Shown piece by piece: positions 7,120 through 59,731 of a stretch of DNA of 64,000 nucleotides. Under the pieces are notes generated by a model. The model searched no databases and was not told the origin of the DNA. It saw only the letters and a program-made list of their open reading frames with translations. The stretch's first letter is position 1; each line of letters starts with the position of its first letter. Position numbers and translations under genes: made by a program. Source of the DNA: Acidimicrobiia bacterium (GTDB taxonomy: Bacteria > Actinomycetota > Acidimicrobiia > IMCC26256 > JAENVU01); contig JBBSAM010000003.1 in the NCBI GenBank assembly GCA_038252255.1, forward strand, positions 58,801 to 122,800, written 5' to 3'.

Positions 7120-10100
7120 ATGCTCCATCTCTCGGCTTCCGATCGCGTCCGTCCGCTCGCGGACGCGCTCGCCGGGGTGCTGGCGACCCCGCTCCCCGAC
7201 CCGATGAAGCCGGAGTGGGTCGCGATCCCGACCGACGGGATGCTGCGGTGGCTGCAGCTCGAGCTGGCCCGGTCGCTCGGCGCGACCGGCCCGGGCCGCG
7301 GCGACGGTGTCGCGGCGAACATCGAGTTCCGGTTCCCCGACGCGCTGCGCCGGGCGGTGCTCGACGCGGACCGGGCCGACGGTGCCGCCGACCCGTGGCA
7401 CGTCGACCATCTCGTGTGGGCCGTGCTCGACGTGCTCCACGCGAGTCGCGATGACGACCGGCTCGGTCCACTCACCACCCTGCCCGCGGGCGGCACCTGG
7501 TTCGGCCGCGCCCGCCGCCTCGCGGACCTGTTCGATCGCTACGCGGTGCGGCGCCCGGAGCTGATCCGCCACTGGAACGAGCACCGCGACGTCGATGCCG
7601 CGGGGTTCAAGCTCGAAGCGCACGACCGGTGGCAGCCACATCTCTGGCGCCTCACGCGCGCGTGCATCGGCGAGCCGAGCCCGCCCGAGCGCTTCCCCGC
7701 CCTGCTCGACGGGTTGCGCGCCGGCACGCTCGAGCCGGAGCTCCCACCGCGACTCGCGGTCTTCGGCATCACCACCCTGCCCGGCGGCGCGCCGTTCCTC
7801 GACCTCGCGCACGCGCTCGCGCAGCACCGGGAGCTCCACCTCTTCCTGCTCGACCCGTCGCCGTCAGCCGTCGCGACCGTGCACGACTTCGCCCGCGCGG
7901 CCCACCCGGAGGCGGAGCTCCTGCGCACCGACGACGAGTCCGCGGCCGCCGTCCGCCATCCGTTGCTGCGCTCGTGGGGGCGTCCCTACCGGGAGCGGAC
8001 CGTCCTGCTCACCGCGGCCGAGCCCACGGGCTGGCCCGAGCCCCTCCGGATCGGCGACGTGAGCCACGACGACGACGCCGATGCCCGGCCGGCCACGCTG
8101 CTCGCCCGGGTCCAAGCCGACCTGCGGGCGGACGTGGTCCCGGCCGGCGACTTCGCGCTCGCCCCGGGCGACCACTCGATCCAGGTGCACTCGTGCCACG
8201 GGCCCGGTCGTCAGGTCGAGGTCCTCCGCGACGCGATCCTGCACCTGCTCGCGGACGACCCCACCCTGCGCGAGGAGGACATCGTCGTCCTGAGCCCGGC
8301 GATCGAGGAGTTCGCGCCGTGGATCGAGTCGGGCTTCGGGACGTCGGCCGACCGCACGCCCGGCGACGGCGCGCCGGGCCGGCCGCAGCTCGCGTACCGC
8401 ATCGCCGACCGGTCGTTGCGCGACTCGGTTCCGCTGCTCGCCGCGCTCGACACGCTGCTCGAGCTCGTCGCGGGTCGCTTCACCGCGTCGGCGGTGCTCG
8501 AGTTCCTCGCGCTCGCGCCCGTCCGCACCCGGTTCGACCTGGACGACGACGCCATCGCGGCCATCGGCCAGTGGATCACCGAGACGAACGTGCGCTGGGG
8601 TCTCGACGGCGCGCACCGCGAGCCGTGGGGCGTGCCGGCCGGGTACTCGGCCAACTCGTGGCAGGCCGCGCTCGACCGGCTGCTCATGGGGATCGCGGTC
8701 AGCGAGGACGACTGGGCGCTGGCGGCCGGGGAGATCGCGCCACTGGGGGTGGAGGGCGGCGACATCGTCGTCGCCGGACGCCTCGCCGACGTCCTCGCCC
8801 ACCTCGCCGAGATCGCAGCGGACCTGGAACGCCCCCGCGCCGCGGCCGAGTGGTGCACCAAGCTGCTCGACGTGAGCGACCGGCTGTTCTCGGTCGAGTC
8901 CTCGCAACAGTGGCAGCAGGACCGGCTGCGCCGGACCATCGCGGACATCGCCGACGCCGCCGCGGTCGGCGACCGCGCGTCCGGCGTCGAGCTGACCCTC
9001 GCGGATCTCCGCCGCCTGCTGGTGGAGCGACTCCGAGGCGCGCCGCGCCGGCCCGACTTCTTCCGGGGTGGGATCACCTTCAGCTCGCTCACTCCCCTGC
9101 GCTGGCTGCCGTTCCGGGTCGTCTGCCTGCTCGGCCTCGACGAGGACGCGCTCGGTACCGAGGCCGCCGACGGCGACGACCTCGCCGCGCTCGTGCCGCG
9201 CCTCGGCGACCGTGATCCCCGCGCCGAGCTGCGCCAGACCCTGCTCGAAGCGGTGCTCGCCGCGCGCGACCACCTCGTCATCACCCGCACCGGCCACAAC
9301 ATCCTCACCAACCAGGATGTGCCGGAGTCGGTCCCGTTCGCCGAGCTGCGCGACACGATCACGGCCACGTTGGCCGGCAGTGCCCGCAACCCGTTCACGG
9401 CTCAGGTCGAGACCGTCCATCCCCACCAGCCATTCGATGCCCGCTGCTTCGAGCCCGGGGCGCTGCGCCACGGGCCGTGGAGCTTCGACGCCACCGCGCT
9501 CGCCGGTGCGCAGGCGCGGGCGCGCCGCACGGACGAGACGGCGCCGTTCCTCACCCGGCCGCTCGCCGCACCCGCCGACCCGGCCCGGGTGATCACGCTG
9601 GCCGAGCTGCAGTCCTTCCTCAACCATCCCGTGAAGTGCTTCTTCGCCCGCCGCCTCGACGTCTACCTCCCTCGCGAGGAGGGCGGGCTCTCGGACCACC
9701 TGCCGATCTCGCTCGGCGGGCTGGCGGAGTGGTCGGCGGCGCAGCGGCTCATCGAGGCCCGGCTCGACGGGCGCACGAGCGAGCAGTGGGCGCGCCACGA
9801 ACGGGCGCTCGGCACGCTCCCGGCCGGCGGCTACGGCGATCTGGCCCTCGCCCGGATCACCGGCCTCGTCGACGCGCTGCTCTCGACCACCACCGCGCTC
9901 GGAGTCGACCCTCGCCACGACGACCCGCAGCCGATCGACGTCGAGCTCCCGGACGGTACCCGCATCGTCGGTGCCGTCGACCTCCGCTGCGGGTCGGAGC
10001 GCCCGGGTCCGGCCCGGCTGACGTTCAGCAAGGCCCAACCGAAGCATCACGTCGAGTCGTGGCTCGATCTCATGGCGCTCGTCGCGCACGATCCGGAGGC

Positions 10101-10614
10101 GAGCTGGCGCAGCGTGCACGTGCGCCGGAACACCGGCGGCACGAAACCGGACCCGCTCGAGCTCGTCGCGCGCGGCGCGACCGCCGAGACGCGACGCTCG
10201 GACGCACTCGCCGCGCTCACGGTCGTGGTGGACCTCTACCGCCGCGGGATGCGCGAACCGATCCCGCTGTTCACCAAGCTGTCCCGCAAGCTCTTCGACG
10301 GTGACGCCACCACCAACGACTGGCTCAACCAGAGCGGCTTCGCGGAGGGCGCGCAGGACCCGCACGTGCTCGCGTTCGGGACCCTCGAGCTCCACGAGCT
10401 GCGGGCACTTCCTGCCCGGCCCGACGATCCGGTGGGCCCGGCACCCGGGCGAGCGCAACGGTTCGCCGACTCCCTGTGGAGCACGGTCGAGAGCTCCGCG
10501 CAGATCCTGGACCCCGCCACGACGGACTCGGATGCCGACGCGAGCCGGAGACCGCCGGCGGCGCCGGATGCCGAGCCGGCGGACGAGCCGCCGGTCGTCG
10601 AGGCGGCGCGATGA
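7120..10614 (+). CDS. recC: Exodeoxyribonuclease V gamma subunit RecC
   Basis: 1164 aa. The N-terminus is RecC-like (MLHLSASDRVRPLADALAGVLATPLPDP...EWVAIPTDGMLRWLQLELAR). The stop overlaps the recB ATG (ATGA at 10611-10614). Confidence 0.9.
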   Translation: MLHLSASDRVRPLADALAGVLATPLPDPMKPEWVAIPTDGMLRWLQLELARSLGATGPGRGDGVAANIEFRFPDALRRAVLDADRADGAADPWHVDHLVWAVLDVLHASRDDDRLGPLTTLPAGGTWFGRARRLADLFDRYAVRRPELIRHWNEHRDVDAAGFKLEAHDRWQPHLWRLTRACIGEPSPPERFPALLDGLRAGTLEPELPPRLAVFGITTLPGGAPFLDLAHALAQHRELHLFLLDPSPSAVATVHDFARAAHPEAELLRTDDESAAAVRHPLLRSWGRPYRERTVLLTAAEPTGWPEPLRIGDVSHDDDADARPATLLARVQADLRADVVPAGDFALAPGDHSIQVHSCHGPGRQVEVLRDAILHLLADDPTLREEDIVVLSPAIEEFAPWIESGFGTSADRTPGDGAPGRPQLAYRIADRSLRDSVPLLAALDTLLELVAGRFTASAVLEFLALAPVRTRFDLDDDAIAAIGQWITETNVRWGLDGAHREPWGVPAGYSANSWQAALDRLLMGIAVSEDDWALAAGEIAPLGVEGGDIVVAGRLADVLAHLAEIAADLERPRAAAEWCTKLLDVSDRLFSVESSQQWQQDRLRRTIADIADAAAVGDRASGVELTLADLRRLLVERLRGAPRRPDFFRGGITFSSLTPLRWLPFRVVCLLGLDEDALGTEAADGDDLAALVPRLGDRDPRAELRQTLLEAVLAARDHLVITRTGHNILTNQDVPESVPFAELRDTITATLAGSARNPFTAQVETVHPHQPFDARCFEPGALRHGPWSFDATALAGAQARARRTDETAPFLTRPLAAPADPARVITLAELQSFLNHPVKCFFARRLDVYLPREEGGLSDHLPISLGGLAEWSAAQRLIEARLDGRTSEQWARHERALGTLPAGGYGDLALARITGLVDALLSTTTALGVDPRHDDPQPIDVELPDGTRIVGAVDLRCGSERPGPARLTFSKAQPKHHVESWLDLMALVAHDPEASWRSVHVRRNTGGTKPDPLELVARGATAETRRSDALAALTVVVDLYRRGMREPIPLFTKLSRKLFDGDATTNDWLNQSGFAEGAQDPHVLAFGTLELHELRALPARPDDPVGPAPGRAQRFADSLWSTVESSAQILDPATTDSDADASRRPPAAPDAEPADEPPVVEAAR

Positions 10615-13600
10615 GCGAGCGCACGCGCTTCGAGCTCACGGGCCCGTTGCCGGTCGGTCGCGTCGCGATCGAAGCGAGTGCCGGGACGGGCAAGACCTAC
10701 ACCCTGGCCGGGCTCGCGGTGCGGTACGTGGCCGAGGCCGCGGTGCCCGTGGCCGAGCTCCTGGTGGTCACGTTCACGCGGGCGGCCGCGGCGGAGCTCC
10801 GCGATCGTGTCCGGACGCGGCTCAGCGACGCCGCGCGCGCGTTGCGCAGCAGCTCCGAGTCCTTCGACGATCCCCTGCTCGGGCACCTCGCGTCCACGGA
10901 CCGCGAGATCCGGGCGGAGCGCATCGAGGCCGCGGTCACGGATTTCGACGCCGCGACGATCACCACGATTCACGGCTTCGCCCAGCAGGTGCTCACCACG
11001 CTCGGCTCGACCGCGCCGGGCGACCTCGACGCCACCTTGGTCGACGACGCCCGCGAGCTCGTGACCCAGGTCTGCGCCGACGTGCTGGCCGCGGCCGCGG
11101 TGGCCGAGCCGCCCGTCGCCGAGGACCTGCCCAAGCTCGGTCGGCTGGTGCAGCTGGTGCTCACGGTGCTGGGCAACCCGGGCCTGGCGATCGTCCCGGG
11201 GCCCGACCCCGAAGACTCGTCGGAGCTCAGTGCCCGCTACCGGCGGCTGGTCGATCAGGCGGTCGACGAGGTGCAGCGGCGCCGGCGCGACGCCGGGACG
11301 ATGTCGTTCGACGACGTGCTGACCCAGCTCCGCGACGCGCTCCGCGACAGCCCCGCGGTCGCGGCCTCGCTCCAACGTCGTTACCGGGTGGCGCTCATCG
11401 ACGAGTTCCAGGACACCGACCCGGTGCAGTGGCAGATCTTCTCGACGCTGTTCGGCGGGGGGACGAGCCAGACGTCGCTCGTGCTCGTCGGCGACCCGAA
11501 ACAGGCGATCTACGCGTTCCGCGGCGCGAACGTGCACACCTACCTCGAGGCCGCGTACGAGCCGGGCACCGAGCGCTCGACCCTCGGCATGAACTGGCGC
11601 TCGGACCAGGCGTTGCTCGACGCGTTGGAGCACCTGCTCCACGGGGCGACGTTCGGTGATCCGCGGATCGGCTTCGTGGACGTCGAGACCGCGCCCGCGC
11701 ACGTCGCGCGCCGGCTGCAGACCGCGGCCGGCACCCCCCTCCCCGCGCTGGCCGTGCGCGCCGCGCTGGGCGCCGACCTCGAGCGCAACAAGACCCGCAA
11801 GCCGCCGCCGATCAAGGTGGACGACGCCACTCGCGCGATCGCCCGCGACCTCGCGCGCCAGGTCCAGCTCCTGCTGGAGGAGGCCTACCTCCCCGGCGGG
11901 GAGGGCGGGACGGGAGCGGACGGAGCCAGCGCGACGCAGCGGGTCCGGCCGCACGACATCGCGGTGCTCGTCGGGACCCACGCCGACGCGACCATCATGC
12001 AGTCGGCACTGCTCCGGCAGGGCATCCCCGCCGTCGCGCACCGGGGCGGCAGTGTGTTGGAGTCGCCGGCCGCGATCCAGTGGCGGTGGCTGTTGACCGC
12101 GCTCAGCCGACCCTCCGACGCGTCCCGCGCGCGCACCGCCGCGTTGTCGTGGTTCTTCGGCTGGCCCGCGGATCGCATCGACACCGCGAGCGACGAGGAC
12201 CTCGCGGGCGTGCAGGAGCGGCTCTACCGGTGGGCGGAGATCCTCGAGACGCGCGGCGCGGTGGACTTCTGCGCCCACGTCTGGTCCGAGAGCGACGTCA
12301 CCACCCGGGTGCTCGAGACGCCCGACGGGGACCGCAACCTCACCGACCTCGACCATCTCGCCCAGCTGCTCCAGGCGAGCGCGTCCGGCCACCGGCCGGG
12401 TCCGGTCGCGCTGCTCGCCGCGCTCGCGCTGCTCGAGGAGGCGAACAAGATCGAGCTCGAGAACGACGTCACCGCGCGCCGCATCGAGTCCGAAGCCGAG
12501 GCCGTACAGGTCATGACGGTGTACGCGGCGAAGGGCCTCGAGTTCCCGGTGGTGTACGTCCCGACGCTGTGGAAGAACAACTTCTCGCGCCGCGAGTGCA
12601 TCTACCAGGACCCGGACACCGGTGCCCGGACGCTGGACGTCACCAAGGCGATCACCAGGTCCGGCGTGTGGCCGAGCAAGGCAGGGGCCGAGGCGCGCAA
12701 GGAGCTCGCGGAGCGGGAGGCGGTCGGCGAGAACCTGCGGCTCCTGTACGTCGCGCTCACCCGCGCCCGGCACCAGACGGTCGTGTGGTGGAGCCGGGCC
12801 CAGGACAGCGAGGCGACCGGCCTGGCCCGGGTGCTCTTCGCCCGCGACGAGGGCGGCTCGCTCCGGCCGGACCTGTTCGAGGCGGACACGGTGCCGTTGC
12901 CGGCCGATGCCGACGCGGTGGCGTGGCTCGCACCCGTGTTCGCCCCGGTCGGCGACGCGGTGGCGCTGACCGAGACGGGCCGGGCGGACGGGGCCGTCCC
13001 GCGGTGGATCCCGGCCGACGACGCGACGACCCCCGCACAGCTGGAGCTCGCCGAGCTCGGGCGGATGCTCGAGCGGCCCCACCGGCGCTGGTCGTTCAGC
13101 GCGATCAGCGACCGCGCGCACACACTGGACCTCGACCCGGACGACGACACGCTCGGTGACTCCGGCGCGGCCGACGAACCCGCCGATCCCGAGGCGGGCG
13201 AGGCGATGGCCGGAGCCGGGACCGGGGAAGCCACCGGACCGGTCGCCGAGCTGGTCACCGATCTGCCGCTCGGCGCGGTGCCGGGCGGCACGACCTTCGG
13301 GTCCATGGTCCACGAGCTGCTCGAGCACGTGGACTTCGCCGCCGCCGACCTCGACGCGGAGCTCCAGGCGCGCATCGACGAGCGGCGGCGCTGGAGCCCG
13401 TCACCGGTGCTGGGCGAGGAGCTGCGCGCGGGCCTGCGGGCCGCGATCGAGTCGCCCCTCGGCCCGCTGTTCGACGGGCGCCGGCTCCGGGACCTGACCC
13501 GCGCCGACCGCCTCGACGAGCTGAGCTTCGAGCTGCGCCTCGGCGAGGGCGGGCGCCGGGCGACGGACCGGGACATCGGCGCGCTCATGGCCCACCACCT

Positions 13601-14105
13601 CGCCGGCGACGACCCGCTACGACCGTGGGCCGAGCGCCTCGCCGCCGGTCTCTTCGACGTCGAGCTCGCCGGCCACCTCACCGGTTCGATCGACGCGATC
13701 TTCCGGGTCACCGACACCACCGAGCTCTTCGCCCCACACCGCTTCGTCCTCGTGGACTACAAGACGAACCTGCTCGCCGAACGCGGGCAGCCGCCGCGGT
13801 CGGCCGACTACCACCCGAGCCGGCTGCCGGCCGCGATGGAGGAGCACCACTACCCGCTCCAGGCGCTGCTCTACTCCGTGGTCCTCCACCGCTACCTGCG
13901 CTGGCGCGTAGAGGGCTACGACCCCGCCGTGCACTTCGGCGGCGCCGCCTACCTCTTCCTGCGCGGGATGACTGGGGCCGGTACGCCGGTCGTGGGCGGC
14001 CAACCGCACGGTGTGTTCGGTTGGGCGGTGCCGCCCGCGCTCGTCACCGACCTGAGCGACCTCCTCGACGGCCAGCTCCTCGACGTACTGGCGGCCGGCG
14101 CATGA
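10611..14105 (+). CDS. recB: Exodeoxyribonuclease V beta subunit RecB (UvrD-type helicase plus PD-(D/E)xK nuclease)
   Basis: Walker A motif EASAGTGKTYTLAG, then DEFQDTD, and C-terminal nuclease-type sequence (LVDYKTN). The in-frame extension upstream of 10611 is Arg/Gly-rich and overlaps recC. Confidence 0.92.
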   Translation: MSERTRFELTGPLPVGRVAIEASAGTGKTYTLAGLAVRYVAEAAVPVAELLVVTFTRAAAAELRDRVRTRLSDAARALRSSSESFDDPLLGHLASTDREIRAERIEAAVTDFDAATITTIHGFAQQVLTTLGSTAPGDLDATLVDDARELVTQVCADVLAAAAVAEPPVAEDLPKLGRLVQLVLTVLGNPGLAIVPGPDPEDSSELSARYRRLVDQAVDEVQRRRRDAGTMSFDDVLTQLRDALRDSPAVAASLQRRYRVALIDEFQDTDPVQWQIFSTLFGGGTSQTSLVLVGDPKQAIYAFRGANVHTYLEAAYEPGTERSTLGMNWRSDQALLDALEHLLHGATFGDPRIGFVDVETAPAHVARRLQTAAGTPLPALAVRAALGADLERNKTRKPPPIKVDDATRAIARDLARQVQLLLEEAYLPGGEGGTGADGASATQRVRPHDIAVLVGTHADATIMQSALLRQGIPAVAHRGGSVLESPAAIQWRWLLTALSRPSDASRARTAALSWFFGWPADRIDTASDEDLAGVQERLYRWAEILETRGAVDFCAHVWSESDVTTRVLETPDGDRNLTDLDHLAQLLQASASGHRPGPVALLAALALLEEANKIELENDVTARRIESEAEAVQVMTVYAAKGLEFPVVYVPTLWKNNFSRRECIYQDPDTGARTLDVTKAITRSGVWPSKAGAEARKELAEREAVGENLRLLYVALTRARHQTVVWWSRAQDSEATGLARVLFARDEGGSLRPDLFEADTVPLPADADAVAWLAPVFAPVGDAVALTETGRADGAVPRWIPADDATTPAQLELAELGRMLERPHRRWSFSAISDRAHTLDLDPDDDTLGDSGAADEPADPEAGEAMAGAGTGEATGPVAELVTDLPLGAVPGGTTFGSMVHELLEHVDFAAADLDAELQARIDERRRWSPSPVLGEELRAGLRAAIESPLGPLFDGRRLRDLTRADRLDELSFELRLGEGGRRATDRDIGALMAHHLAGDDPLRPWAERLAAGLFDVELAGHLTGSIDAIFRVTDTTELFAPHRFVLVDYKTNLLAERGQPPRSADYHPSRLPAAMEEHHYPLQALLYSVVLHRYLRWRVEGYDPAVHFGGAAYLFLRGMTGAGTPVVGGQPHGVFGWAVPPALVTDLSDLLDGQLLDVLAAGA

Positions 14106-15985
14106 GCGCCCCTGCGCCCATCCTCGACCGCGACACGCAGGTGCTCGAGCCGTTCGTCGCGGCCGGTGTGCTCGACGCGGCGGCGGTGCACGTCGCCGGG
14201 CGGATCGCCCGCGCCGTCGGCGGCCTCGATCCCGCCGTGCTGCTGGGTGCCGCGCTGGCCACGCGCGCACCGACGTTCGGTCACGTCTGCATCGTTCCCG
14301 CGACCGTGGCCGAGTCCATCGTGCTCGACGACCCCGAACCGGTCGCGCTCGACACCCTTCCGTGGCCCGACCCCGGGGAGTGGGCGACGCGTCTCGCCGC
14401 GAGCGGCGCGGTGCGCGGCCCGGACGATCCGGGCAACGGTGTCTCGCTCCCGCTCGTCTGGGACGGCACCCGCCTCTACCTCGAGCGGTACTGGCGGTTC
14501 GAGCGCCGGGTCGCCGACGATCTGCGGCGCCGCGCCGCGACCGCGGGCGGCATCGCGGGAGCGTCGCCCGAGCTCACCGGGATCCTCGACCGGCTGTTCG
14601 ACGCCGGCGGCGGGAGCGGGCCGGATCTCCAGCGCGACGCGGCGACGATCGCGCTCACTCACCACCTCGCGGTGATCGCGGGGGGTCCCGGCACCGGCAA
14701 GACGCGCACCATCGCCCGGTTGCTCGCCGCCGCGCACCACGTCGCGCTCGCCGAGGGCCGGCCCATCGAGGTGGCGCTGGCCGCGCCGACGGGCAAGGCA
14801 TCGGCGCGCATGACCCAGGCGGTGCACCACGAGGTCGCCGAGGCGGGCGAGACCGGCCCGGTCGCGGACCAGCTGCTCGCGACCGAGGCGTCCACGCTGC
14901 ACCGGTTGTTGGGCGCGACGTCGGGCGTGGAGTTCCGCCACGACGCCGCCAACCCACTCCCCCACGACCTCGTGGTGGTGGACGAGACGTCGATGGTGTC
15001 GCTGCCGCTCATGGCCCGGCTGCTCGCGGCGGTTCGCCGGGACGCGACACTCGTGCTCGTCGGCGACCCGTACCAGCTCGCGAGCGTCGAGGCCGGCGCG
15101 GTGCTCGGCGAGATCGTCGGCCCGACCCCCGGGACGCGCGCGCACGGACCGCTGGCCGAGCGCGTCGTGCTGCTCGAACGGGTGCACCGCTTCGGTGCCG
15201 ACTCGGCGATCGCCGCCCTGGCGGACGCGGTTCGGACCGGCGACGCCGACCGCGCCCTGCGCCTCCTGGCCGGCGACGACACCGGTGATCTCACCTGGGT
15301 CGCCGCGGACGACACCCCCGGAATCGCCGCCGTCCAGCGCGACGCGGCCGCGCACGCGGTCGACGTGATCGCCGCGGCACGCGCCGGCGACGCCGAGGCC
15401 GGGCTCGCCCGCGCGGCGGCGCTGAAGGTCCTGAGCGCGACCCGGCTCGGACCGCTCGGCGCGTACCGGTGGGGGGACCGCATCGAGACGCTCGCCGGCC
15501 GGGCCATGCCGCCGGCCGCGATGCAGGGCCGTTGGTACGTCGGCCGGCCGGTCATCGTGACCCGCAACGACTACCCGAACCGCCTGGTCAACGGCGACGT
15601 CGGGCTCGTGGTCGCCGGAGCCGAACGGCCGGTGGTGGCCTTCGGCGGCGCCGAGGGGATCCGGGAGCTCGCGGTCTCCCAGCTCGACGAGATCGAGACC
15701 TGGTGGGCGATGACCATCCACAAGAGCCAGGGTTCCGAGTTCGGCCGGGTCGTGATCACGCTCCCGCCGGCCCCGTCACCGATCCTCACCCGCGAGCTCC
15801 TCTACACCGCGGTGACCCGGGCGAAGGAGCACGTCACCGTCGTGGCCTCCGAGGCGTCGCTGCGCGCCGCGATCGCCCGCCCGGTGAACCGCGCCTCCGG
15901 CCTGGCAGACCAGCTCGCCCACTCTTCAAGATCGCCGGCGCTTCCGAGATCTCCGGCGGCCGAACGGAAGGACCGCGAGCGGTAG
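14102..15985 (+). CDS. recD: Exodeoxyribonuclease V alpha subunit RecD
   Basis: GGPGTGKT, VVDETSMV, and TIHKSQGSEF...YTAVTRAK are present. There is an ATGA overlap with recB. The last ~19 codons and the TAG stop lie inside the repeat array. Confidence 0.9.
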   Translation: MSAPAPILDRDTQVLEPFVAAGVLDAAAVHVAGRIARAVGGLDPAVLLGAALATRAPTFGHVCIVPATVAESIVLDDPEPVALDTLPWPDPGEWATRLAASGAVRGPDDPGNGVSLPLVWDGTRLYLERYWRFERRVADDLRRRAATAGGIAGASPELTGILDRLFDAGGGSGPDLQRDAATIALTHHLAVIAGGPGTGKTRTIARLLAAAHHVALAEGRPIEVALAAPTGKASARMTQAVHHEVAEAGETGPVADQLLATEASTLHRLLGATSGVEFRHDAANPLPHDLVVVDETSMVSLPLMARLLAAVRRDATLVLVGDPYQLASVEAGAVLGEIVGPTPGTRAHGPLAERVVLLERVHRFGADSAIAALADAVRTGDADRALRLLAGDDTGDLTWVAADDTPGIAAVQRDAAAHAVDVIAAARAGDAEAGLARAAALKVLSATRLGPLGAYRWGDRIETLAGRAMPPAAMQGRWYVGRPVIVTRNDYPNRLVNGDVGLVVAGAERPVVAFGGAEGIRELAVSQLDEIETWWAMTIHKSQGSEFGRVVITLPPAPSPILTRELLYTAVTRAKEHVTVVASEASLRAAIARPVNRASGLADQLAHSSRSPALPRSPAAERKDRER

Positions 15986-16140
15986 ACGGCCGCCGGCGGC
16001 TCTCCAAGATCTCCGGCGGCCGAACGGAAGGACCGCGAGCGGTAGACGGCCGCCGGCGGCTCTCCAAGATCTCCGGCGGCCGAACGGAAGGACCGCGAGC
16101 GGTAGACGGCCGCCGGCGGCTCTCCAAGATCTCCGGCGGC
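15929..16140 (+). repeat. Tandem array of a 60-bp hairpin repeat (3 perfect units plus partial flanks)
   Basis: The unit is AGATCT-CCGGCGGCCG-(24 nt, core GACCGCG)-CGGCCGCCGG-CGGCTCTCCA. Units start at 15947, 16007, 16067 and 16127. Confidence 0.95.
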
Positions 16141-21940: not shown

Positions 21941-23223
21941 GCTCCCGCGGCGGAGGGAACGACGCGGCCGGCTACTGGCCCAGCCGCTGGCCCGGCGAAG
22001 ACGGCGGGCCGCGGCGCACCCAGTCTCCGCGCGGCGGATCCGGGCCCGGGCTCCGCCCCGGCGCGCACCTCGACGTCGTCTCGCGCGACGCAGCGGCCGC
22101 GACCATGGTGGTGCTGCGGGACCCGGGCGAGGCGTACCTGCTGCGGCACACCGGTGGCGCGGACGCGATCTCGTGGGTCGAACGGTTCGACCCGGTCTCG
22201 CTCGAGCCGGTCGAGCGGTCGCCGGACCTCGCCGGCGGCCCCACCTGGCCGGGCGGCGTCGCGGTGCACGCGAACGGCTCGCTGCACGTCGCGTTCGGCA
22301 ACCATGTCCACCGGCTCGGACCGGACACCGCGCCCATCGCCGCTCGCCGGCTCCCGCGTGAGCGGCCGTACAACAGCTTCGTCGTGCTGCCGGACGGGCA
22401 TCTTGCGATCAAGGACTTCGGCGGCGCGCTCCCGGGAGGCTCTCCCGCCGCCCCGGAGCCGGCCGAGCTGCTGGTGCTCGAACCCGACGGGCTCGAGATC
22501 GTCGCGCGGCTGGCGCTCCCCGAGCGCTCGATCGCGCGTCTGTCCGCCGCAGGATCGGACATCTACGTCGTCGGCGACGCCAGCCTCTTCCGGGTTCGTT
22601 GGGACGGCGAGCAGCTGACCCTGGACGACGGGTTCCAGCCCCGTTACCGGACCATCGAGGGCCAGACCTACGGCTGGGACACGGTGATCGACGCCGGCTC
22701 GGCCTGGTTCCTCGACAACGGTGAGGGCAGCGAGGGGTACGCCGGGACCTTCCGCGGCGTCGGCATCTCGACCGCGCCGCTCCACCTCGTGCGGGTAGAC
22801 CTCGCCACCGGTGCCGTCGGGCTCACCGAGATCTGCGGGCAGCCGAACGGCATCGTCGCGAACCCGCCATCGGTCGACCCCGAGCGGGGCATCGCGGTCG
22901 GTTACGACAGCGGCAACGGCGTGCTCGCGGCGTTCAGCTTCGACCCTTCGGTGCACGGGCCGCTCGAGCCGCGGTGGACGCGTGAGCAGAACCACGGCTC
23001 CCACATGCTGCGCTTCCCCGACACCGGCGAGCTGGTGACCGCCGACCATGACGCGGCCAACCTGTGCGAGCACGTCGTCGTCCTGGACATCGAGACCGGG
23101 GAGGAGATCGCTCGCGCCGAGACGGGGAGCCCGGTGCAGTCCGTGCTGTTCCCCTGCCCGGGGTTCGACCGGGACTTCTACCTCTGCTCGTTCACCACTC
23201 TCAGCCGGGTCAGCGTGACCTGA
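21937..23223 (+). CDS. Hypothetical protein, beta-propeller-like repeats
   Basis: The GTG start overlaps the cyclase stop. 428 aa with repeated strand-rich blocks. I recognise no named family. Confidence 0.65.
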   Translation: MSSRGGGNDAAGYWPSRWPGEDGGPRRTQSPRGGSGPGLRPGAHLDVVSRDAAAATMVVLRDPGEAYLLRHTGGADAISWVERFDPVSLEPVERSPDLAGGPTWPGGVAVHANGSLHVAFGNHVHRLGPDTAPIAARRLPRERPYNSFVVLPDGHLAIKDFGGALPGGSPAAPEPAELLVLEPDGLEIVARLALPERSIARLSAAGSDIYVVGDASLFRVRWDGEQLTLDDGFQPRYRTIEGQTYGWDTVIDAGSAWFLDNGEGSEGYAGTFRGVGISTAPLHLVRVDLATGAVGLTEICGQPNGIVANPPSVDPERGIAVGYDSGNGVLAAFSFDPSVHGPLEPRWTREQNHGSHMLRFPDTGELVTADHDAANLCEHVVVLDIETGEEIARAETGSPVQSVLFPCPGFDRDFYLCSFTTLSRVSVT

Positions 23224-23834
23224 TCCCGAGGGGGATCCTGAACGGTGCCGCCCTGAACGGTGCCGCCCTCGGCCGCCGGACCAGCAGCGATCCGACCGTT
23301 CGGCCGAGGGAGACCCTGAACGGTGCCGCCCTCGGCCGCCGGACCAGCAGCGATCCGACCGTTCGGCCGAGGGGGATCCTGAACGAGCAGGTGCCGGAAG
23401 CGCGAGACGGTGTGCTCGACGACGCGGTCGTGCGCGAAGCGGATGACCGGGGACCCGACGCGGGCGGCGAGGCGCATCGGCCGTTGCATCATCTCCACGC
23501 TCCAGCTCACCGTGGCCCGGGTGCCGTCCCGTTCCGGATCGAAGCGGATGCCGGCCCGGCCGACGAGGTCACCCGAGACGGCGGCTTCGATCAGGCTGGG
23601 GCGTACGCAGCGCACCAGCGCGATGTGCAGGTGCATCCGGTAGGGCACGGGCGGTGCGACCAGCCCGTGCAGCACGCAGCCGGATTCGAGCGGCGTGCCG
23701 TCCACCCTCAGCTCACGCAACCAGCTCCACCAGGACTCGAACTCCTCGGTCCGGGCGACTGTGGACCAGACGGCGTCCGGCGTCGCGGGCAGGCTGAAGC
23801 GTTCGGCGTACTCGAAGATGGGGGCACGCACCAT
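23178..23834 (-). CDS. SRPBCC (START/polyketide cyclase-like) family protein with a repeat-encoded C-terminal tail
   Basis: GGGAG RBS is present. The protein starts MVRAPIFEYAERFSLPATPDAVW... The last ~70 codons read through the 63-bp array (PRPNGRIAAGPAAEGGTVQG twice). The ORF ends 46 bp inside the convergent gene. Confidence 0.65.
   Translation of the reverse strand: MVRAPIFEYAERFSLPATPDAVWSTVARTEEFESWWSWLRELRVDGTPLESGCVLHGLVAPPVPYRMHLHIALVRCVRPSLIEAAVSGDLVGRAGIRFDPERDGTRATVSWSVEMMQRPMRLAARVGSPVIRFAHDRVVEHTVSRFRHLLVQDPPRPNGRIAAGPAAEGGTVQGLPRPNGRIAAGPAAEGGTVQGGTVQDPPRDQVTLTRLRVVNEQR
23225..23385 (-). repeat. Tandem array (about 2.6 units) of a 63-bp variant of the hairpin repeat family
   Basis: Arms CCCTCGGCCG / CGGCCGAGGG lie at 23266-23275/23301-23310 and at 23329-23338/23364-23373. 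Loops are 25 nt and the flank is GGATCCT/AGACCCT. Confidence 0.9.
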
Positions 23835-23850: not shown

Positions 23851-24060
23851 TCAGGCGAGTCGGATGTCGTCGCTGGTGAACGCGCGCGGCAAGACCGCGC
23901 CGTCGGAGCACCGGCGCACTTCGTAGGCACCGTCGCGCCAGCCACTCACTTGAAAGCCGGGCGACCAGAGATTGAGCGAGTTGCGGACCAGCACGCCGGT
24001 GCCCACGTCCAATTGCGGGCGCGGCCTGGAGATCTCGTTGCGCATGGAGGCGGCTTCCAT
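23851..24060 (-). CDS. Small hypothetical protein (69 aa)
   Basis: GAGGAGGA RBS upstream of the ATG at 24060. No recognisable domain. Confidence 0.4.
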   Translation of the reverse strand: MEAASMRNEISRPRPQLDVGTGVLVRNSLNLWSPGFQVSGWRDGAYEVRRCSDGAVLPRAFTSDDIRLA

Positions 24061-24163
24061 CGGAATCCTCCTCGGGAGTCGGGGTGCTGCCGGGGAAGTG
24101 TCGGCGGGGAAGCGGGTGTTCATTGTCCGCCCTCAGTCAAGGGGGACAAACCTCGCGCCGAAC

Positions 24164-24364
24164 TCAGATCTTCGGCTCGGGCCAGAGCACGGCGTGCTCG
24201 ACCATCACCGAGCACCCGAACCGGTGCTCCGCGATCCGGCGCGCCTCGCCCTCGGCCGCCAGCGCGTTCTCGGCATCGACGAAGACCACCGTCATGCCGT
24301 TGCCCTCGGGCCGGTCCAGGGTCTGGACCGCCACGCCGTAGGTATGCGCGTCCTCGTGCTTCAT
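24164..24364 (-). CDS. Small hypothetical protein (66 aa)
   Basis: CAGGAG RBS upstream of the ATG at 24364. No recognisable domain. Confidence 0.4.
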   Translation of the reverse strand: MKHEDAHTYGVAVQTLDRPEGNGMTVVFVDAENALAAEGEARRIAEHRFGCSVMVEHAVLWPEPKI

Positions 24365-25104: not shown

Positions 25105-26136
25105 CTAGCGCAGCGGGCCGGGAACCTCTTCGACGCGGCCGTCCGCGTGGCGCGCGAAGCGCCCGCGGTCGCGCGTGTGAACGGGATCGTCGGTCGGCCA
25201 GGGCCACCCACCGAACCCCGTCCGGCGGTAGTCCTCGAACGTCTGCTGGATCTCGCCCTGGGTGTTCATCACGAACGGTCCGTACTGCGCGACCGGCTCG
25301 CCGATCGGCCGGCCCTGCAGCACGAGGAGCTCGACCCCGCGGTCACCGGCCGTGAGCGGCGCGGGGTCGTCGGTACGGACCGCGGCACCGGTGTCGGGCC
25401 CGATCTCGTGCTCCCCCACCCGGAGCCCGGAGCCGTCGTAGACGTAGAGCATCCGCACGGTGTCGGCGCCGCGGGCCGGCGGCAGCGTCCATCGCGCGCC
25501 GGGCTCCATCCGGATCACCCAGATCGCCACGTCCGACTCCGCGCGTGCGGCCCAGGAGTTCGGCGGCGGCGCGGGCGGTTGATGGCCGTCGAGCTCGCCC
25601 GCGATGGCCGTGACCTCCGTGATCCGGCCCTCGTCGTCCTTGTGCTCGACCGTCGGGATGTCGTCGTGCCACAGCATCGTGAAGTACGGGTCCGCCATCT
25701 TGTCGGTGGCGGGCAGGTTCAGCCAGATCTGGAACAGCTCGAGCGGGTTCGGACCCTCCCGGTCCAGGAGGGGGAACATCTCGGCGTGGACGATGCCCTT
25801 TCCCGCGGTGAGCCACTGCACGTCGCCGCGCCCGAACCTCGCGGTCGCGCCGAGAGAGTCGGAGTGGTCGATCTGGCCGCGCCGCACGTAGGTCACCGTC
25901 TCGAACCCTCGGTGCGGGTGGCTCGGGAACCCCGGCACTACCTGGCCGTGGTACATGTTCCAGCCGGCGATCCGGTCGAAGTCCGAGCCGATCTGGCGGC
26001 CGGTCAGGTCCGCCACGGGGCCGAGCTGGTCGTTCCCGGCCGGGTACGCGTCGTCGTGGTGGGCACAGAACAGGAACGGGTCGATCGTCGGCCACTGCGG
26101 GCCCAGGGCCACCGTCTGGAGCACGAAGTCGGTCAT
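25105..26136 (-). CDS. Pirin family protein
   Basis: HPHRGFETVTY and WLTAGKGIVHAEM are present. 343 aa from MTDFVLQ. The upstream in-frame extension is Arg/Pro-rich. Confidence 0.9.
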   Translation of the reverse strand: MTDFVLQTVALGPQWPTIDPFLFCAHHDDAYPAGNDQLGPVADLTGRQIGSDFDRIAGWNMYHGQVVPGFPSHPHRGFETVTYVRRGQIDHSDSLGATARFGRGDVQWLTAGKGIVHAEMFPLLDREGPNPLELFQIWLNLPATDKMADPYFTMLWHDDIPTVEHKDDEGRITEVTAIAGELDGHQPPAPPPNSWAARAESDVAIWVIRMEPGARWTLPPARGADTVRMLYVYDGSGLRVGEHEIGPDTGAAVRTDDPAPLTAGDRGVELLVLQGRPIGEPVAQYGPFVMNTQGEIQQTFEDYRRTGFGGWPWPTDDPVHTRDRGRFARHADGRVEEVPGPLR

Positions 26137-26180
26137 CGCCACCAGGCTAGAAGGCCCGTCAAATCGTCCGCGCGCTCCGC

Positions 26181-26705
26181 TCATGCCGGATCGATCGAGC
26201 TCCCGTCCGGACGCCAGTCGGTGACGGGGTGGATCTCCCACTGCGTGTACTCGTGGAGCGGATCGTTGGCGTGAGTGTCGAAGTACGGCGTTCCGGTCTC
26301 CTGGATGCGGCTGCCGAGCGGCGGCTGCTCGAGACCGCGTGCCTGGTCGCGCGGGATGACCTCGGTGATGAACGCGGGGACGGATCCGTCGGTCACGTCG
26401 ACGTGCCAGTCGCCGTCTTCCTGAGGGGCAACGGCGATGACCGTGAGGTTCCTCACGTGGACCAGGACCCCACCGTGGCCCTCCTTGTCGACCGCACCCC
26501 GGAACCGGCCGGCGATGATCTCCTGGAGGGTGGTCTCGATGGGCTTGTTGCGAGGCAGCGGGGGTTTCCGCGCCAGGCCGGAATCGGTGTCCGGATCGCA
26601 TGACACCACCAGGAGGCAGCACACCACGATCGCCAGCACAGCGTGAAGGAGACCGCGAGTCCGGCTCCGGATCTCCAGGCCCGCCCTAGTGGATGAAGCC
26701 ATCAC
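26181..26705 (-). CDS. Putative lipoprotein, unknown function
   Basis: The signal peptide carries a lipobox (CCLLVVSC-DPD). The start is uncertain. It overlaps the M28 gene's 3' end by 20 bp. Confidence 0.55.
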   Translation of the reverse strand: MMASSTRAGLEIRSRTRGLLHAVLAIVVCCLLVVSCDPDTDSGLARKPPLPRNKPIETTLQEIIAGRFRGAVDKEGHGGVLVHVRNLTVIAVAPQEDGDWHVDVTDGSVPAFITEVIPRDQARGLEQPPLGSRIQETGTPYFDTHANDPLHEYTQWEIHPVTDWRPDGSSIDPA

Positions 26706-27858: not shown

Positions 27859-27933
27859 CGTTCCCCCAAGTTCGCGATGAGCCCCGAGTGTCCCATCCCG
27901 GGGCGGAGGCGTCGAGACGACACCGGCGGCCGG

Positions 27934-39784: not shown

Positions 39785-39836
39785 CCGCCGCCGGCCGCCC
39801 CGCGATCGCGGTCGAGCGATCGGCCGGCGGAGATCT
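39785..39836 (-). repeat. Single copy of the hairpin repeat family
   Basis: The plus strand reads CCG-CCGCCGGCCG(39788-39797)-23 nt (CGCGGTC core)-CGGCCGGCGG(39821-39830)-AGATCT(39831-39836). It is wedged between the convergent lhgO and ldh stops. Confidence 0.85.
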
Positions 39837-41020: not shown

Positions 41021-41644
41021 GTGAGCCCCAGCCAGAAGCAGAAGCAGAGTCAGAGGCGCAAGTCGTCGACCCCGCCCCCGCAGAGCAAGGCGTGGGTCCG
41101 GATCGCGATCTTCGCGCTGGCCATCGTGTTTGCGTTCGGTTCCGTCATCGCCATCGCCATCGGCAGCAGCGGCAACTCCGGGAACGACACCGCGAGCACG
41201 ACGGCCCCGTCGACCGCTGCCACTCCGGCCGCGGCTTCGGTCGCAGGCAAGCCGTGCGTGGCCGAGACCGGCACGCCGCCGGCGGGTGCACCCGTCGTGC
41301 CGGTGGAGGTCGGCCCGCCGCCGACCACGCTCGTCTCGAAGGACCTCGAAGTCGGAACCGGCCCGACGGTCGCGCCGGGCGCGACCGTCACCGTCGACTA
41401 CATCGGCGTCTCGTGCTCGACCGGCGTGATCTTCGACTCGTCGTACAAGGGCGGCCAGCCGGTGACGCTCCCGCTCGCCAACATGATCCCGGGTTGGACC
41501 AACGGCATCCCCGGCATGAAGGTCGGCGGCACCCGGCTGCTCGGCATCCCACCGGACCAGGCGTACGGGGACAACGGTCAGGGCCCCGACATCGCGCCCG
41601 GCGAGACCCTCTGGTTCGTGGTGAAGGTCGAGAGCACGCAGTAG
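41021..41644 (+). CDS. Membrane-anchored FKBP-type peptidyl-prolyl cis-trans isomerase
   Basis: GTG start. A basic N-terminus and one TM helix precede VTVDYIGV...GVIFDSSY...IPGWTNGIPGMKVGGTRLLGIPPDQAYG. Confidence 0.8.
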   Translation: MSPSQKQKQSQRRKSSTPPPQSKAWVRIAIFALAIVFAFGSVIAIAIGSSGNSGNDTASTTAPSTAATPAAASVAGKPCVAETGTPPAGAPVVPVEVGPPPTTLVSKDLEVGTGPTVAPGATVTVDYIGVSCSTGVIFDSSYKGGQPVTLPLANMIPGWTNGIPGMKVGGTRLLGIPPDQAYGDNGQGPDIAPGETLWFVVKVESTQ

Positions 41645-41650
41645 CCCTGA

Positions 41651-41703
41651 AGATCTCCGGAGGGCGGACGCTCGACCGCGGCTGAGCCGGCGCCCTCCGG
41701 CGG
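41651..41703 (+). repeat. Single copy of the hairpin repeat family
   Basis: AGATCT(41651-41656)-CCGGAGGGCG-24 nt (GACCGCG core)-CGCCCTCCGG(41691-41700)-CGG. It lies between the convergent FKBP and whiB stops. Confidence 0.9.
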
Positions 41704-42845: not shown

Positions 42846-43943
42846 TCAACGAGGTGAGAAGCCGGCGCGATCGGCATCCAGCGCCGCGACGCGGCCGGAC
42901 GGCGCGATCCCGTCACCGCGGAGCCGGGCCGGGAGACGCGCCACCAGCCCCGCCTCCGTCTCGAGGTGGAACCCGCGGCCGCGGAGCTGCGGATGCTCGG
43001 TCGCGCCTTCGGGAGACAGCACCGGTGTGACGGGCGCGCCGAACGATTCGAGTCGCGCGAGCGCGACCTCCGAGCCGAGCCCGGCGATCCGCTCGGCGAT
43101 CATCGCGTTGATCTCGTCCGTGCGCGCGAGTCGCGCCGCGAACGTGAGCGGAGCGAGCTCCTCGAGCCCCAGGGCGCGGCAGATGGCGTCCCAGAGTCTC
43201 TGCTCCGCGAGCACGCCGAGCGCGATCCACGCACCATCCGCGGCGCGGAACACGCCGTAACCGGGTGACCCCACGGTTCGGCTACCGGCCTCCGCGTTCG
43301 CGGTCCCGCTGCGCGTCCCCACCCACCACGCGACGACGTCGGCCATCGCGACGTCGATCCGCTCGCCCTCGCCGGTCGCGATCCGGTGCGCCCACGCCGC
43401 GCAGATCAACATCGCGCACACCGTCCCACCTTCGAGGTCGGCGACCGGGAGCCGCGACACCTCGGGAGCAAGCTCGGGGCGGCGCGGCGCGAGCGCACCC
43501 GCGATCGCCTGGAAGTTCACGTCGTGGCCGGGCACATCGCGAAGCGGCCCGTCCTGGCCGAAGCCGGTCAGCGAGCAGTAGATGACCGTCGGGTTCGCTT
43601 CCACGACCGTCTCGTAGCCGAGCCCGAGCCGGTCCGCGACACCCGGCCGCCAGCTCTCGCACACCACGTCGGCCGCCGCCGCCAGCTCGAGCGCCCGCGC
43701 GCTCCCGGCCTCGGTGCGGAGGTCCAGCACGATGCTGCGCTTCCCGCGGGCGACCGAGGCGAAGATCTCCGGATAGCCGCGCATCGGGTCGCCACCCGGC
43801 GGCTCGACCTTGAGCACCTCGGCGCCGAGGTCGGCGAGGATCTGGGTCGCGTGCGGCATCGGCCGCCACGCCGACAGATCCAACACCCGCATCCCCGCCA
43901 GAAGCCCAGACACAACCGCTTCTTTACTAGGTACCGCCACCAT
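42846..43943 (-). CDS. CoA transferase (family III, CaiB/BaiF-like)
   Basis: LAGMRVLDLS...ILADLGAEVLKVEPPGGDP. Start choices are ATG 43943 (inside the repeat edge), GTG 43913 or ATG 43892. Confidence 0.85.
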   Translation of the reverse strand: MVAVPSKEAVVSGLLAGMRVLDLSAWRPMPHATQILADLGAEVLKVEPPGGDPMRGYPEIFASVARGKRSIVLDLRTEAGSARALELAAAADVVCESWRPGVADRLGLGYETVVEANPTVIYCSLTGFGQDGPLRDVPGHDVNFQAIAGALAPRRPELAPEVSRLPVADLEGGTVCAMLICAAWAHRIATGEGERIDVAMADVVAWWVGTRSGTANAEAGSRTVGSPGYGVFRAADGAWIALGVLAEQRLWDAICRALGLEELAPLTFAARLARTDEINAMIAERIAGLGSEVALARLESFGAPVTPVLSPEGATEHPQLRGRGFHLETEAGLVARLPARLRGDGIAPSGRVAALDADRAGFSPR

Positions 43944-44087
43944 TCGCCCTCCGGAGATCTTCGGAATGCCGCCGGAGGGCGCCGGGCAACCGCGGTCCAC
44001 CATTCGCCCTCCGGAGATCTTCGGAATGCCGCCGGAGGGCGCCGGGCAACCGCGCTCCACCATTCGCCCTCCGGAGATCTCCGAATT
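43937..44087 (-). repeat. Tandem array (about 2.5 units, 60-bp period) of the hairpin repeat family in a divergent promoter region
   Basis: Complete hairpins lie at 43972-44014 and 44032-44074 (CCGGAGGGCG / CGCCCTCCGG). AGATCT occurs at 43955, 44015 and 44075. Confidence 0.95.
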
Positions 44088-44154
44088 GAAGGATGGCGGG
44101 AAAGGTGGGTTCGCCGTCCTTGTGGTCGCGGGGAGGTGGCCGCACGATGGGGTC

Positions 44155-49481: not shown

Positions 49482-49496
49482 ACCTCCGGGCCCGCC

Positions 49497-54252: not shown

Positions 54253-54313
54253 CCGCCCGAGGGCGCCTGAGCGATCGCGCTCGGGCCATTCGCCTCCGGA
54301 GACCTCCGGAATC
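54253..54313 (-). repeat. Degenerate single copy of the hairpin repeat family
   Basis: CCG-CCCGAGGGCG-25 nt-CGCCTCCGG-AGACCT-ccggaatc. The arms are no longer perfectly complementary and AGATCT is mutated. It lies between convergent stops. Confidence 0.6.
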
Positions 54314-59689: not shown

Positions 59690-59731
59690 CGGTCTTCTCC
59701 TTCGAGAGCGTCGAGGTGTTGCTGAGACTGG

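Follow-up and report, generated by a model that had tools for sequence, protein, structure and literature searches.

The question raised by the 3' end of recD in the 64-kb stretch of contig JBBSAM010000003.1 analysed here (the whole of which is called the window) is what kind of element the gene runs into, and whether the structure of that element is being kept. An array of three identical 60-bp units, framed by partial units, occupies positions 15929-16140 (locus A), and the sequence itself and Tandem Repeats Finder (15933-16140, period 60, 3.5 copies, 98% matches) agree on it. In each unit AGATCT is followed by an arm CCGGCGGCCG, a 24-nt loop, a second arm CGGCCGCCGG and the segment CGGCTCTCCA, and the two arms form a perfect 10-bp stem. 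An earlier reading of the window, made without any database (the sequence-only reading), had described these units correctly and had claimed that they founded a dispersed repeat family with compensatory stem changes, under selection for a folded structure, either RNA or cruciform DNA. The element is a palindromic repeat of 60-80 bp, so far undescribed, that recurs in the genomes of a group of uncultured Acidimicrobiia from soil, and we think it rather probable that it represents a non-coding family of palindromic DNA repeats, specific to this lineage and similar in kind to REP, MIRU and MITE (miniature inverted-repeat transposable element).

Distribution of the family and paired changes in its stem

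Copies were sought in one genome per bacterial and archaeal species with the pattern AGATCTCCNNNGGNCGN{21,27}CGNCCNNNGGCGG, in which the invariant bases are fixed and stem positions 3, 4, 5 and 8 are left free on both arms. The scan returned 95 loci, about 81 of them in roughly a dozen metagenome-assembled genomes (MAGs) of uncultured soil Acidimicrobiia, one of which is labelled Thermoleophilaceae; the rest were single matches in unrelated phyla. The two richest MAGs contained 23-26 pattern-matching 8-kb stretches each, and 65 contigs from soil metagenomes matched as well, which confirms that the family is dispersed. Viral contigs gave no pattern match, and a BLAST search of plasmid and phage records with two units gave none either. 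The window is 75-80% identical in DNA to the syntenic parts of two copy-bearing MAGs and the relatives of its RecD are labelled Acidimicrobiia or Acidimicrobiales, so it belongs to the same lineage as these MAGs, as a species outside the representative set. Numbered loci from relatives' genomes are given below as L-numbers.

The element was not recognised as a named family in the sequence-only reading, and this agrees with what was found. A comparison of the window with Rfam, which that reading had proposed, gave 0 matches at the gathering score, and at E <= 1 only the aspS RNA (E = 0.74, 18.7 bits against a gathering score of 42.5). A literature search on such an element in Actinobacteria or Acidimicrobiia found no description.

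The family unit consists of (T)TCCGA-AGATCT, a 10-bp GC-rich arm, a loop of 21-27 nt (usually 23-25), the complementary arm and CGG. The 5' motif (TTCCGA)AGATCT varies within the form RGRTCY. The core measures ~53 bp, or 60-80 bp with flanks, and in a subset of copies only, a short imperfect outer inverted repeat (TCCG..AAGA / TCTT..CGGA) brings the total to ~75-80 bp. In one locus (L017:71-124) there is a loop-less derivative, AGATCT-C-CCTCGGTCGACCGAGG-CGG, in which the arms abut as a perfect palindrome. An extension of the stem into the loop, with three extra pairs after a bulged A, was considered and rejected; these positions were only 51-88% paired and had almost no double changes.

Pairing of the arms could be tested fairly because the search pattern did not demand complementarity, although 6 of the 10 pairs are forced by it. 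Within the lineage almost all pattern matches were complementary at 10/10 positions, whereas matches outside it reached 6-8/10. The metagenome copies comprised 53 at 10/10, 3 at 9/10 and 11 at 6-8/10. In an alignment of 90 sequences, the four free stem pairs had 132 cells changed on both sides, 10 broken and 1 with G-U. Cells were paired in 99.1% of cases compared with 84.8% in column shuffles, no shuffle of 500 reached the observed value, and the signal was lost when partner columns were slid by 1-3 positions. At least 14 fully self-complementary arm variants occur among the pattern matches. The paired, compensatory stem changes that the sequence-only reading described are thus far above chance, and the complementarity of the arms exceeds what the shuffles and the out-of-lineage matches would lead one to expect.

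A set independent of the pattern was provided by 18 copies that a covariance model found in loci collected for another copy. The stem is perfect in about 10 of these and has a single mismatch in 5, and 3-4 copies are decayed; compensation is seen at positions 2, 7 and 7-8, with arm pairs such as CTGGAGGGCG/CGCCCTCCAG, CCGGAGCGCG/CGCGCTCCGG and CCGGCGCTCG/CGAGCGCCGG. The mean loop distance is 10.4 between copies with the same arms and 10.5 between copies with different arms, and the copies in L022 and L040 differ by one loop base, yet by three compensated stem pairs. Arms thus vary independently of how similar the loops are, and the paired changes must have arisen on many occasions and not in a few master copies. 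Orthologous copies that differ by paired changes in place were also identified (L012/L013 and L107/L052). Folding stability alone is no evidence for structure: one unit folded as DNA had z = -0.05 relative to shuffles, which is unexceptional for a sequence of 72-75% GC, and within arrays arm 2 can alternatively pair with arm 1 of the next unit, in competition with the expected hairpin.

Tandem arrays, the end of recD and turnover of copies

By arrangement, the copies comprise 71 single units and 23 head-to-tail arrays of 2-5 units. Units within one array are identical. Dispersed copies are less alike: inside a single genome their loops differ at a median of 9 of ~23 positions, and comparison across genomes gives the same level of difference. 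The arrays are therefore young local expansions, and dispersal is older or slow. A comparison of array copy number, which the sequence-only reading had proposed for strains, revealed differences between relatives at orthologous sites, for example three units in L049 and one in L014. The periods had been described as multiples of three, which is true of the window's own arrays (60, 63 and 60 bp) but does not extend to the relatives, where periods of 57, 59, 60, 61, 62 and 63 bp occur; 9 of 17 periods, those of the window included, are divisible by three. A CRISPR array was considered as well, but repeats with unique spacers were not seen, and the sequence between stems is identical in every unit of an array.

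At locus A, the recD stop codon TAG (15983-15985) falls within the loop of unit 1, as had been noted. The Pfam domains of the recD open reading frame (ORF) are RecD_N, AAA_19, AAA_30 and UvrD_C_2, of which UvrD_C_2 stops at residue 581 of the 627, and the protein ends in ...ADQLAHSSRSPALPRSPAAERKDRER*, that is, ...ADQLAHSS-RSPALPRSPAAERKDRER. Nearly all RecD relatives have 607 amino acids and end in ...RASGLxxKL(W/H)x, about 6 residues past SGL. Because these relatives end earlier than the window RecD, the repeat supplies its last 18-19 codons together with the stop codon, in line with the figure of about 19 given in the sequence-only reading. The claim that this array is the founding copy of the family does not stand. 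Among the closest relatives, the site after recD is empty in L097 and L098 and contains only a 16-nt partial unit, CAAGATCTCCGCCGGC, overlapping the stop codon in L096. The three units being identical, array A is a recent local expansion, which displaced the recD stop. In the 638-residue RecD relative P0029, the C-terminal tail includes ...LQISGRKA..., which is the translation of AGATCTCCGG, and the recD 3' end may be occupied by an element in that lineage too.

Orthologous sites examined without selection by the pattern were found in intact, decayed and absent states. The cleanest presence/absence difference, of 53 nt, separates L012 from L013, whose empty site (~4600) keeps GAGATCC-CCTGAG. 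In L086 a 3-unit array stands between two operon genes that are 4 nt apart in L009. In MAG SMAG_U4828, a 63-nt copy (L080:2440-2540) lies in frame within the part of a pirin-family gene that encodes the C-terminal cupin domain and adds 21 amino acids (GGALPKISGGRSPDRDAPAPS), while the window ortholog (25105-26184, minus strand) is uninterrupted and has no such insert. L116 contains a copy where the matching window site (27859-27933) has only CCGGCCGCCGG. Flanks of L010:2200-2330 and L032:130-290 are 97-99% identical, and between the same stop and start codons their intergenic segments are unrelated, each with an element that has different arms and loops and the opposite orientation; this difference is a replacement and not point divergence.

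Solo partial units without a hairpin, as in L096:3310-3330 (CAAGATCTCCGCCGGC at the recD stop) and in L013 (GAGATCC-CCTGAG), are better read as footprints of a deleted unit or array. Empty sites with AGATCC and CCTGAG (L013) or AGATCTCCGCCGGC (L096) had prompted the idea that the arms are copied from, or guided by, the target site. This was ruled out, as an AGATCT-like motif is present in the 3' flank of only 15 of 93 elements, and excess similarity of the 3' flank to an element's own arm occurs only in arrays and where a degenerate unit adjoins the copy.

Constraint on the stem and the level at which it acts

Genes around the copies were called by third-position GC, which allowed 100 element clusters to be placed; in 61 of them the genes on both sides are near. 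By far the most copies are intergenic, and many lie within 1-40 nt of a stop codon. Sixteen of the 61 clusters are between convergent genes and 12 (~20%) between divergent genes; in co-directional pairs the element is sense in 19 and antisense in 14, and overall its orientation is unbiased relative to transcription. Copies also change orientation over short distances, which suggests that there is no bias relative to replication direction either. G-U pairs are almost absent from intact stems, and single stem mismatches are of the A-C type in 7 cases and of the G-T type in 1 (p = 0.07). No terminator-like site or T-run was found around array A, a promoter scan was negative as well, and the family departs from intrinsic terminators in its 21-27-nt loop, its lack of a T-run, its lack of orientation bias and its 12 of 61 sites between divergent genes. 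The absence of orientation bias and of a terminator site, the flips at orthologous sites, the scarcity of G-U pairs and the A-C mismatches favour a Watson-Crick DNA hairpin over strand-specific RNA. The earlier claim of selection on a folded structure therefore stands in so far as the stem is constrained, and gives way where RNA was offered as the level of selection. With clean stem covariation that lacks G-U intermediates, paired changes alone do not prove an RNA function.

Divergence in place was compared in 30 pairs of copies, taken as orthologous where each of the two flanks gave a BLAST match; mean flank divergence was 9.8%. Arms differed at 22 of 600 positions (3.7%), or at 22 of 240 (9.2%) where only the pattern-free positions are counted, and loops at 209 of 702 (30%), with p ~1e-11 for the difference at pattern-free positions. 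Six stem pairs had changed on both sides and 10 positions singly. This sample favours intact copies, since most pairs entered it because both copies matched the pattern, and decayed orthologs are under-represented. We conclude from these figures that the stem is constrained, either through an enzyme that recognises it or through use by the host.

In a rival account the host itself selects the element as an RNA hairpin, acting at mRNA 3' ends as a stabiliser or as a terminator without a U-tract, with a symmetric stem that could work both ways; each copy would persist for its benefit to the gene beside it. Such a role would account for the arms being kept in place far more than the loops, for the many copies close to stop codons and for a modest excess of gene 3' ends over 5' ends facing elements (82 vs 53, p = 0.016), and REP and SMAG elements have been reported to affect the stability of upstream mRNA (PMC3184786). 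The 3'-end excess, however, would follow from a 3'-end function but also if insertions that disrupt promoters are selected against. We consider an RNA role rather unlikely, given that about a fifth of the sites, array E among them, lie between divergent gene starts, and that copies also occur within coding sequence. In addition, no T-run or terminator-like site accompanies the stem, the loop far exceeds those of terminators, G-U pairs are essentially missing though RNA helices tolerate them, close relatives differ through gain, loss, inversion and replacement of copies, and 3-4 of the 18 pattern-independent copies are decayed. An RNA hairpin also gives no role to the conserved asymmetric flanks AGATCT and CGG. 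At the other extreme, structure might not be selected at all. Template switching in quasi-palindromes has been documented to generate perfect stems and preserve them, along with seemingly compensatory substitutions (PMC8794818), and this process, or mismatch repair in an extruded hairpin, would copy one arm onto the other and produce paired changes in one step. Such an origin fits the near absence of one-sided intermediates and G-U pairs, arm variants unrelated to loop lineage, and the existence of whole-element inversions and a loop-less derivative. It predicts equal divergence of arms and loops, whereas at orthologous sites the arms are 3-8x slower, in a sample biased towards intact copies. 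Across genomes ~20% diverged in DNA, the flank motif and the greater part of the arm hardly vary, and the dispersal of one sequence family over hundreds of sites in one lineage is left unexplained. Selection-free origin of the stems is accordingly an improbable account.

Two further explanations concern the sequence and not its folding. A translated peptide repeat would explain the 60/63-bp periods and open frames of the window arrays, the RecD and SRPBCC-family ORFs that run into arrays, and the 63-nt copy in frame inside the pirin gene. It is very hard to reconcile with the periods of 57, 59, 61 and 62 bp elsewhere, with most copies being intergenic and in either orientation, and with close RecD relatives that have no tail, and open frames are expected in any sequence of ~72% GC. 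A chance GC-rich palindrome or assembly artefact is scarcely credible. A single unit does fold no better than shuffles, and the window contains 46 hairpin axes with perfect arms of at least 9 bp, but 7 exact pattern matches were found in the window against 0.00 expected (100 shuffles), the family recurs in independent assemblies from different data types and groups, and the distribution of complementarity is two-peaked, at 10/10 and at 6-8/10.

With a palindromic DNA repeat family as the preferred reading, the constraint would act on a DNA hairpin or cruciform, with AGATCT at its foot, that is recognised by a trans-acting protein. For REP elements, a hairpin with a conserved 5' motif is regarded as the feature that RAYT transposases recognise. 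Single units can expand locally into head-to-tail arrays, which may grow and shrink through replication slippage or unequal recombination between units. Copies come and go between related genomes, and the arms stay Watson-Crick complementary as their sequence varies. Effects on genes (protein tails, the in-frame insert and possibly hairpins at mRNA 3' ends) would be by-products.

Several results weigh against a mobile palindromic repeat. No transposase was found by tblastn with approximate RAYT and IS200 queries in 0.78 Mb, which amounts to little of the genomes concerned. Where two copies bracket a region, no parent insertion sequence with the same ends was present, and regions between inverted copies hold housekeeping genes (acyl-CoA synthetase, Fpg and class IV aminotransferase). 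No target-site duplication was observed, including in the cleanest pair (L012/L013), and most single copies are without terminal redundancy. With the exception of one segmental duplicate, no two dispersed copies in one genome are near-identical, and there is therefore no direct sign of recent transposition. The excess of elements at gene 3' ends counts against it as well, as do arms that diverge less than loops in the 30 orthologous pairs, which could mean that each copy is kept by the host.

A stronger form of the palindromic repeat reading, which we regard as tentative and on the whole doubtful, is that every copy functions as a signal, in the form of a DNA hairpin or cruciform, to a structure-specific enzyme, for example an HUH/Y1 or other recombinase. 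If true, this would be the first REP-RAYT-like host-element system described in Acidimicrobiia, with a recognition motif of its own, AGATCT at the stem foot, and unusual direct tandem arrays. The slower divergence of the arms would then reflect continuing recognition of resident copies and not sampling bias.

Related elements and the copies in the window

REP/SMAG elements and REPINs, mobilised by RAYT (Y1/HUH) transposases, are known mainly from Proteobacteria. Like REP and SMAG elements, the Acidimicrobiia family consists of short, G+C-rich extragenic palindromes in many copies, single or clustered, with a conserved motif directly 5' of the stem, which is GTAG in SMAG (PMC3184786) and AGATCT here. 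Conserved stem pairing, vertical, lineage-specific inheritance and long persistence are further likenesses to REP and REPINs, as the REPIN/RAYT literature describes them. Unlike REP, the unit is longer (~53 bp core, 60-80 bp with flanks) and its loop measures 21-27 nt, and a GTAG-type tetranucleotide is absent from the 5' stem foot in the aligned copies. Clusters are direct head-to-tail arrays, in contrast to those of REPINs, and an inverted doublet was seen once (L012). The host also differs from those of REP-RAYT systems, being a member of the Actinomycetota, and no RAYT was identified with the approximate queries in 0.78 Mb.

MIRU elements are 40-100 bp long, with G-C-rich internal inverted repeats, and occur between genes, including within operons, in direct arrays of variable copy number and with unit ends that overlap the stop or start of neighbouring genes (PMC3184786). 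The Acidimicrobiia family shares with them an actinobacterial host, direct arrays of variable copy number and overlap with gene ends, as evident from the RecD overlap, the operon array in L086 and the copy-number differences at orthologous sites. This likeness is judged from the description of MIRU; the genus is different, and probably the sequence. MIRU are reported at ~40-50 sites, with tetranucleotide direct repeats at filled sites that were not seen in the Acidimicrobiia family, and a strictly covarying 10-bp stem defines the latter but not MIRU. The REP/MIRU-like behaviour proposed in the sequence-only reading is thus borne out by the GC-rich extragenic hairpin and the variable direct arrays, while the GTAG motif, inverted doublets as the rule and target-site duplication are lacking.

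Rickettsia palindromic elements (RPE) are likewise palindromic and insert in frame, adding peptide segments (PMC10969869), and the 21-residue pirin insert and the C-terminal tails on RecD and the SRPBCC protein are comparable cases. RPE, however, are ~105-150 bp long, belong to AT-rich, obligate intracellular Alphaproteobacteria and are often intragenic, whereas intragenic copies are exceptional in the Acidimicrobiia family. MITEs such as Correia, ERIC and Chunjie are also small, non-autonomous and mostly intergenic, with variable copies and occasional in-frame fusions, and they have imperfect terminal inverted repeats (PMC10969869), to which the outer inverted repeat corresponds in only a subset of the Acidimicrobiia copies. 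In contrast to MITEs, no target-site duplication was detected for the Acidimicrobiia element, nor a parent insertion sequence in the regions bracketed by two copies. It is shorter than most MITEs, and a single internal stem makes up its dominant feature.

The element is best classed as a new family of a type already well known, as small palindromic repeats are common in bacterial genomes. Its covariation is unusually clean, and its lineage is abundant and poorly known. With the covariance model, genomes of uncultured soil Actinomycetota can be searched for a repeat that shapes their intergenic regions and the ends of some of their proteins. Strains could probably be told apart by the copy number of their arrays, which are also likely to interrupt assemblies, and false C-terminal extensions are to be expected where genes enter copies, as in RecD and the SRPBCC protein. 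If a dedicated enzyme were found, biology of the REP-RAYT type would reach beyond Proteobacteria.

The copies in the window are listed in Table 1. A search of the window with filters off, using a covariance model built from 90 non-redundant copies, recovered exactly six loci (A-F) and nothing else convincing; the five loci other than A are those given in the sequence-only reading, which was also correct about the four arm sequences and the decayed state of copy F. Array B was recovered, with scores of 48.5 and 32.4 bits, though it is absent from the seed. The GC content is ~71% throughout the window, and a blind list of every perfect stem with arms of 9 bp or more and a loop of 12-40 nt contained 46 hairpin axes, among which the family copies are set apart by their common flanks. 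Weak model matches inside genes (43749-43816 and 41356-41446) and isolated AGATCTCCGG-like motifs near 24026-24175 and 49480 were rejected as family copies.

Table 1. Repeat copies of the window and the genes upstream of array A.
Feature	Position	Strand	Description
Long ORF	7120..10614		Precedes the RecB-like helicase gene; by position would be a candidate recC
RecB-like helicase gene	10611..14105		Upstream of recD
recD (exodeoxyribonuclease V alpha subunit)	14102..15985	+	End of putative recC-recB-recD run; Pfam
Degenerate partial unit AAGATCgCCGGCGcttccg	15929..15946	+	5' edge of array A; one mismatch vs AGATCTCCGG
Array A, three identical 60-bp units	15947..16126	+	Tandem Repeats Finder; covariance model 67 bits
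Array A, unit 1	15947..16006	+	Stem 15953-15962/15987-15996
Array A, unit 2	16007..16066	+	Stem 16013-16022/16047-16056
Array A, unit 3	16067..16126	+	Stem 16073-16082/16107-16116
Terminal partial unit AGATCTCCGGCGGC	16127..16140	+	Closes array A
Array B, two 63-bp units and partial units	23225..23393	-	Arms CCCTCGGCCG/CGGCCGAGGG; period 63, 97%
Single copy C	39785..39836	-	Arms CCGCCGGCCG/CGGCCGGCGG; model 69.4 bits
Single copy D	41651..41703	+	Arms CCGGAGGGCG/CGCCCTCCGG; model 67.7 bits
Array E, two 60-bp units and a partial unit	43937..44087	-	Arms CCGGAGGGCG/CGCCCTCCGG; period 60, 98%; 80.5 bits
Decayed single copy F	54253..54313	-	Flank AGGTCT; model 39.7 bits, outside seed

Array B lies between convergent genes and has GGATCC or GGTCT in place of the AGATCT flank. 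The ORF of the SRPBCC/polyketide-cyclase family at this site (23178-23834, minus strand; domain at residues 13-129) has no stop before the array and reads through it, which yields a repeat-encoded tail of ~70 amino acids (...PRPNGRIAAGPAAEGGTVQG, twice); this tail is probably an artefactual or recent C-terminal extension. Copy C is located between convergent genes for an FAD oxidoreductase and a lactate/malate dehydrogenase, and copy D lies 7 nt past the stop codon of an FKBP-type isomerase gene. Array E stands between two divergent genes, one for a family III CoA-transferase (42846-43913, minus strand) and one for a DJ-1/PfpI protein. It fills most of the ~240 nt between their starts (43914-44155), which would be promoter or 5' untranslated DNA of both genes. 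Copy F, between convergent ABC-3 permease and FUR genes, lacks one base of the stem and has a mismatch at another position. At this site L107 and L052 carry an element too, in the orientation opposite to that of the window copy, with different but self-complementary arms, and it is here that these two relatives differ from each other by a paired stem change.

A few other repeats and hairpins were noted in the window. A small perfect hairpin at 49461-49491, GGAGGTCT-cgt-AGACCTCC, is unrelated to the family and stands between convergent genes, with the TAG of the upstream gene at its loop/stem junction, and is a possible terminator-type structure. A 15-bp tandem repeat, GCCCGGTCTCGGGCA, occurs at 59583-59633 (3.3 copies, 94% matches) in a region (~58979-59731) where no gene was called on the rough gene map. 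Imperfect 18/36-bp tandem repeats, CAGCTCGTCCACCACCTC, at 2792-2930 lie within ORF 2206-3765 and probably encode a repetitive protein segment.

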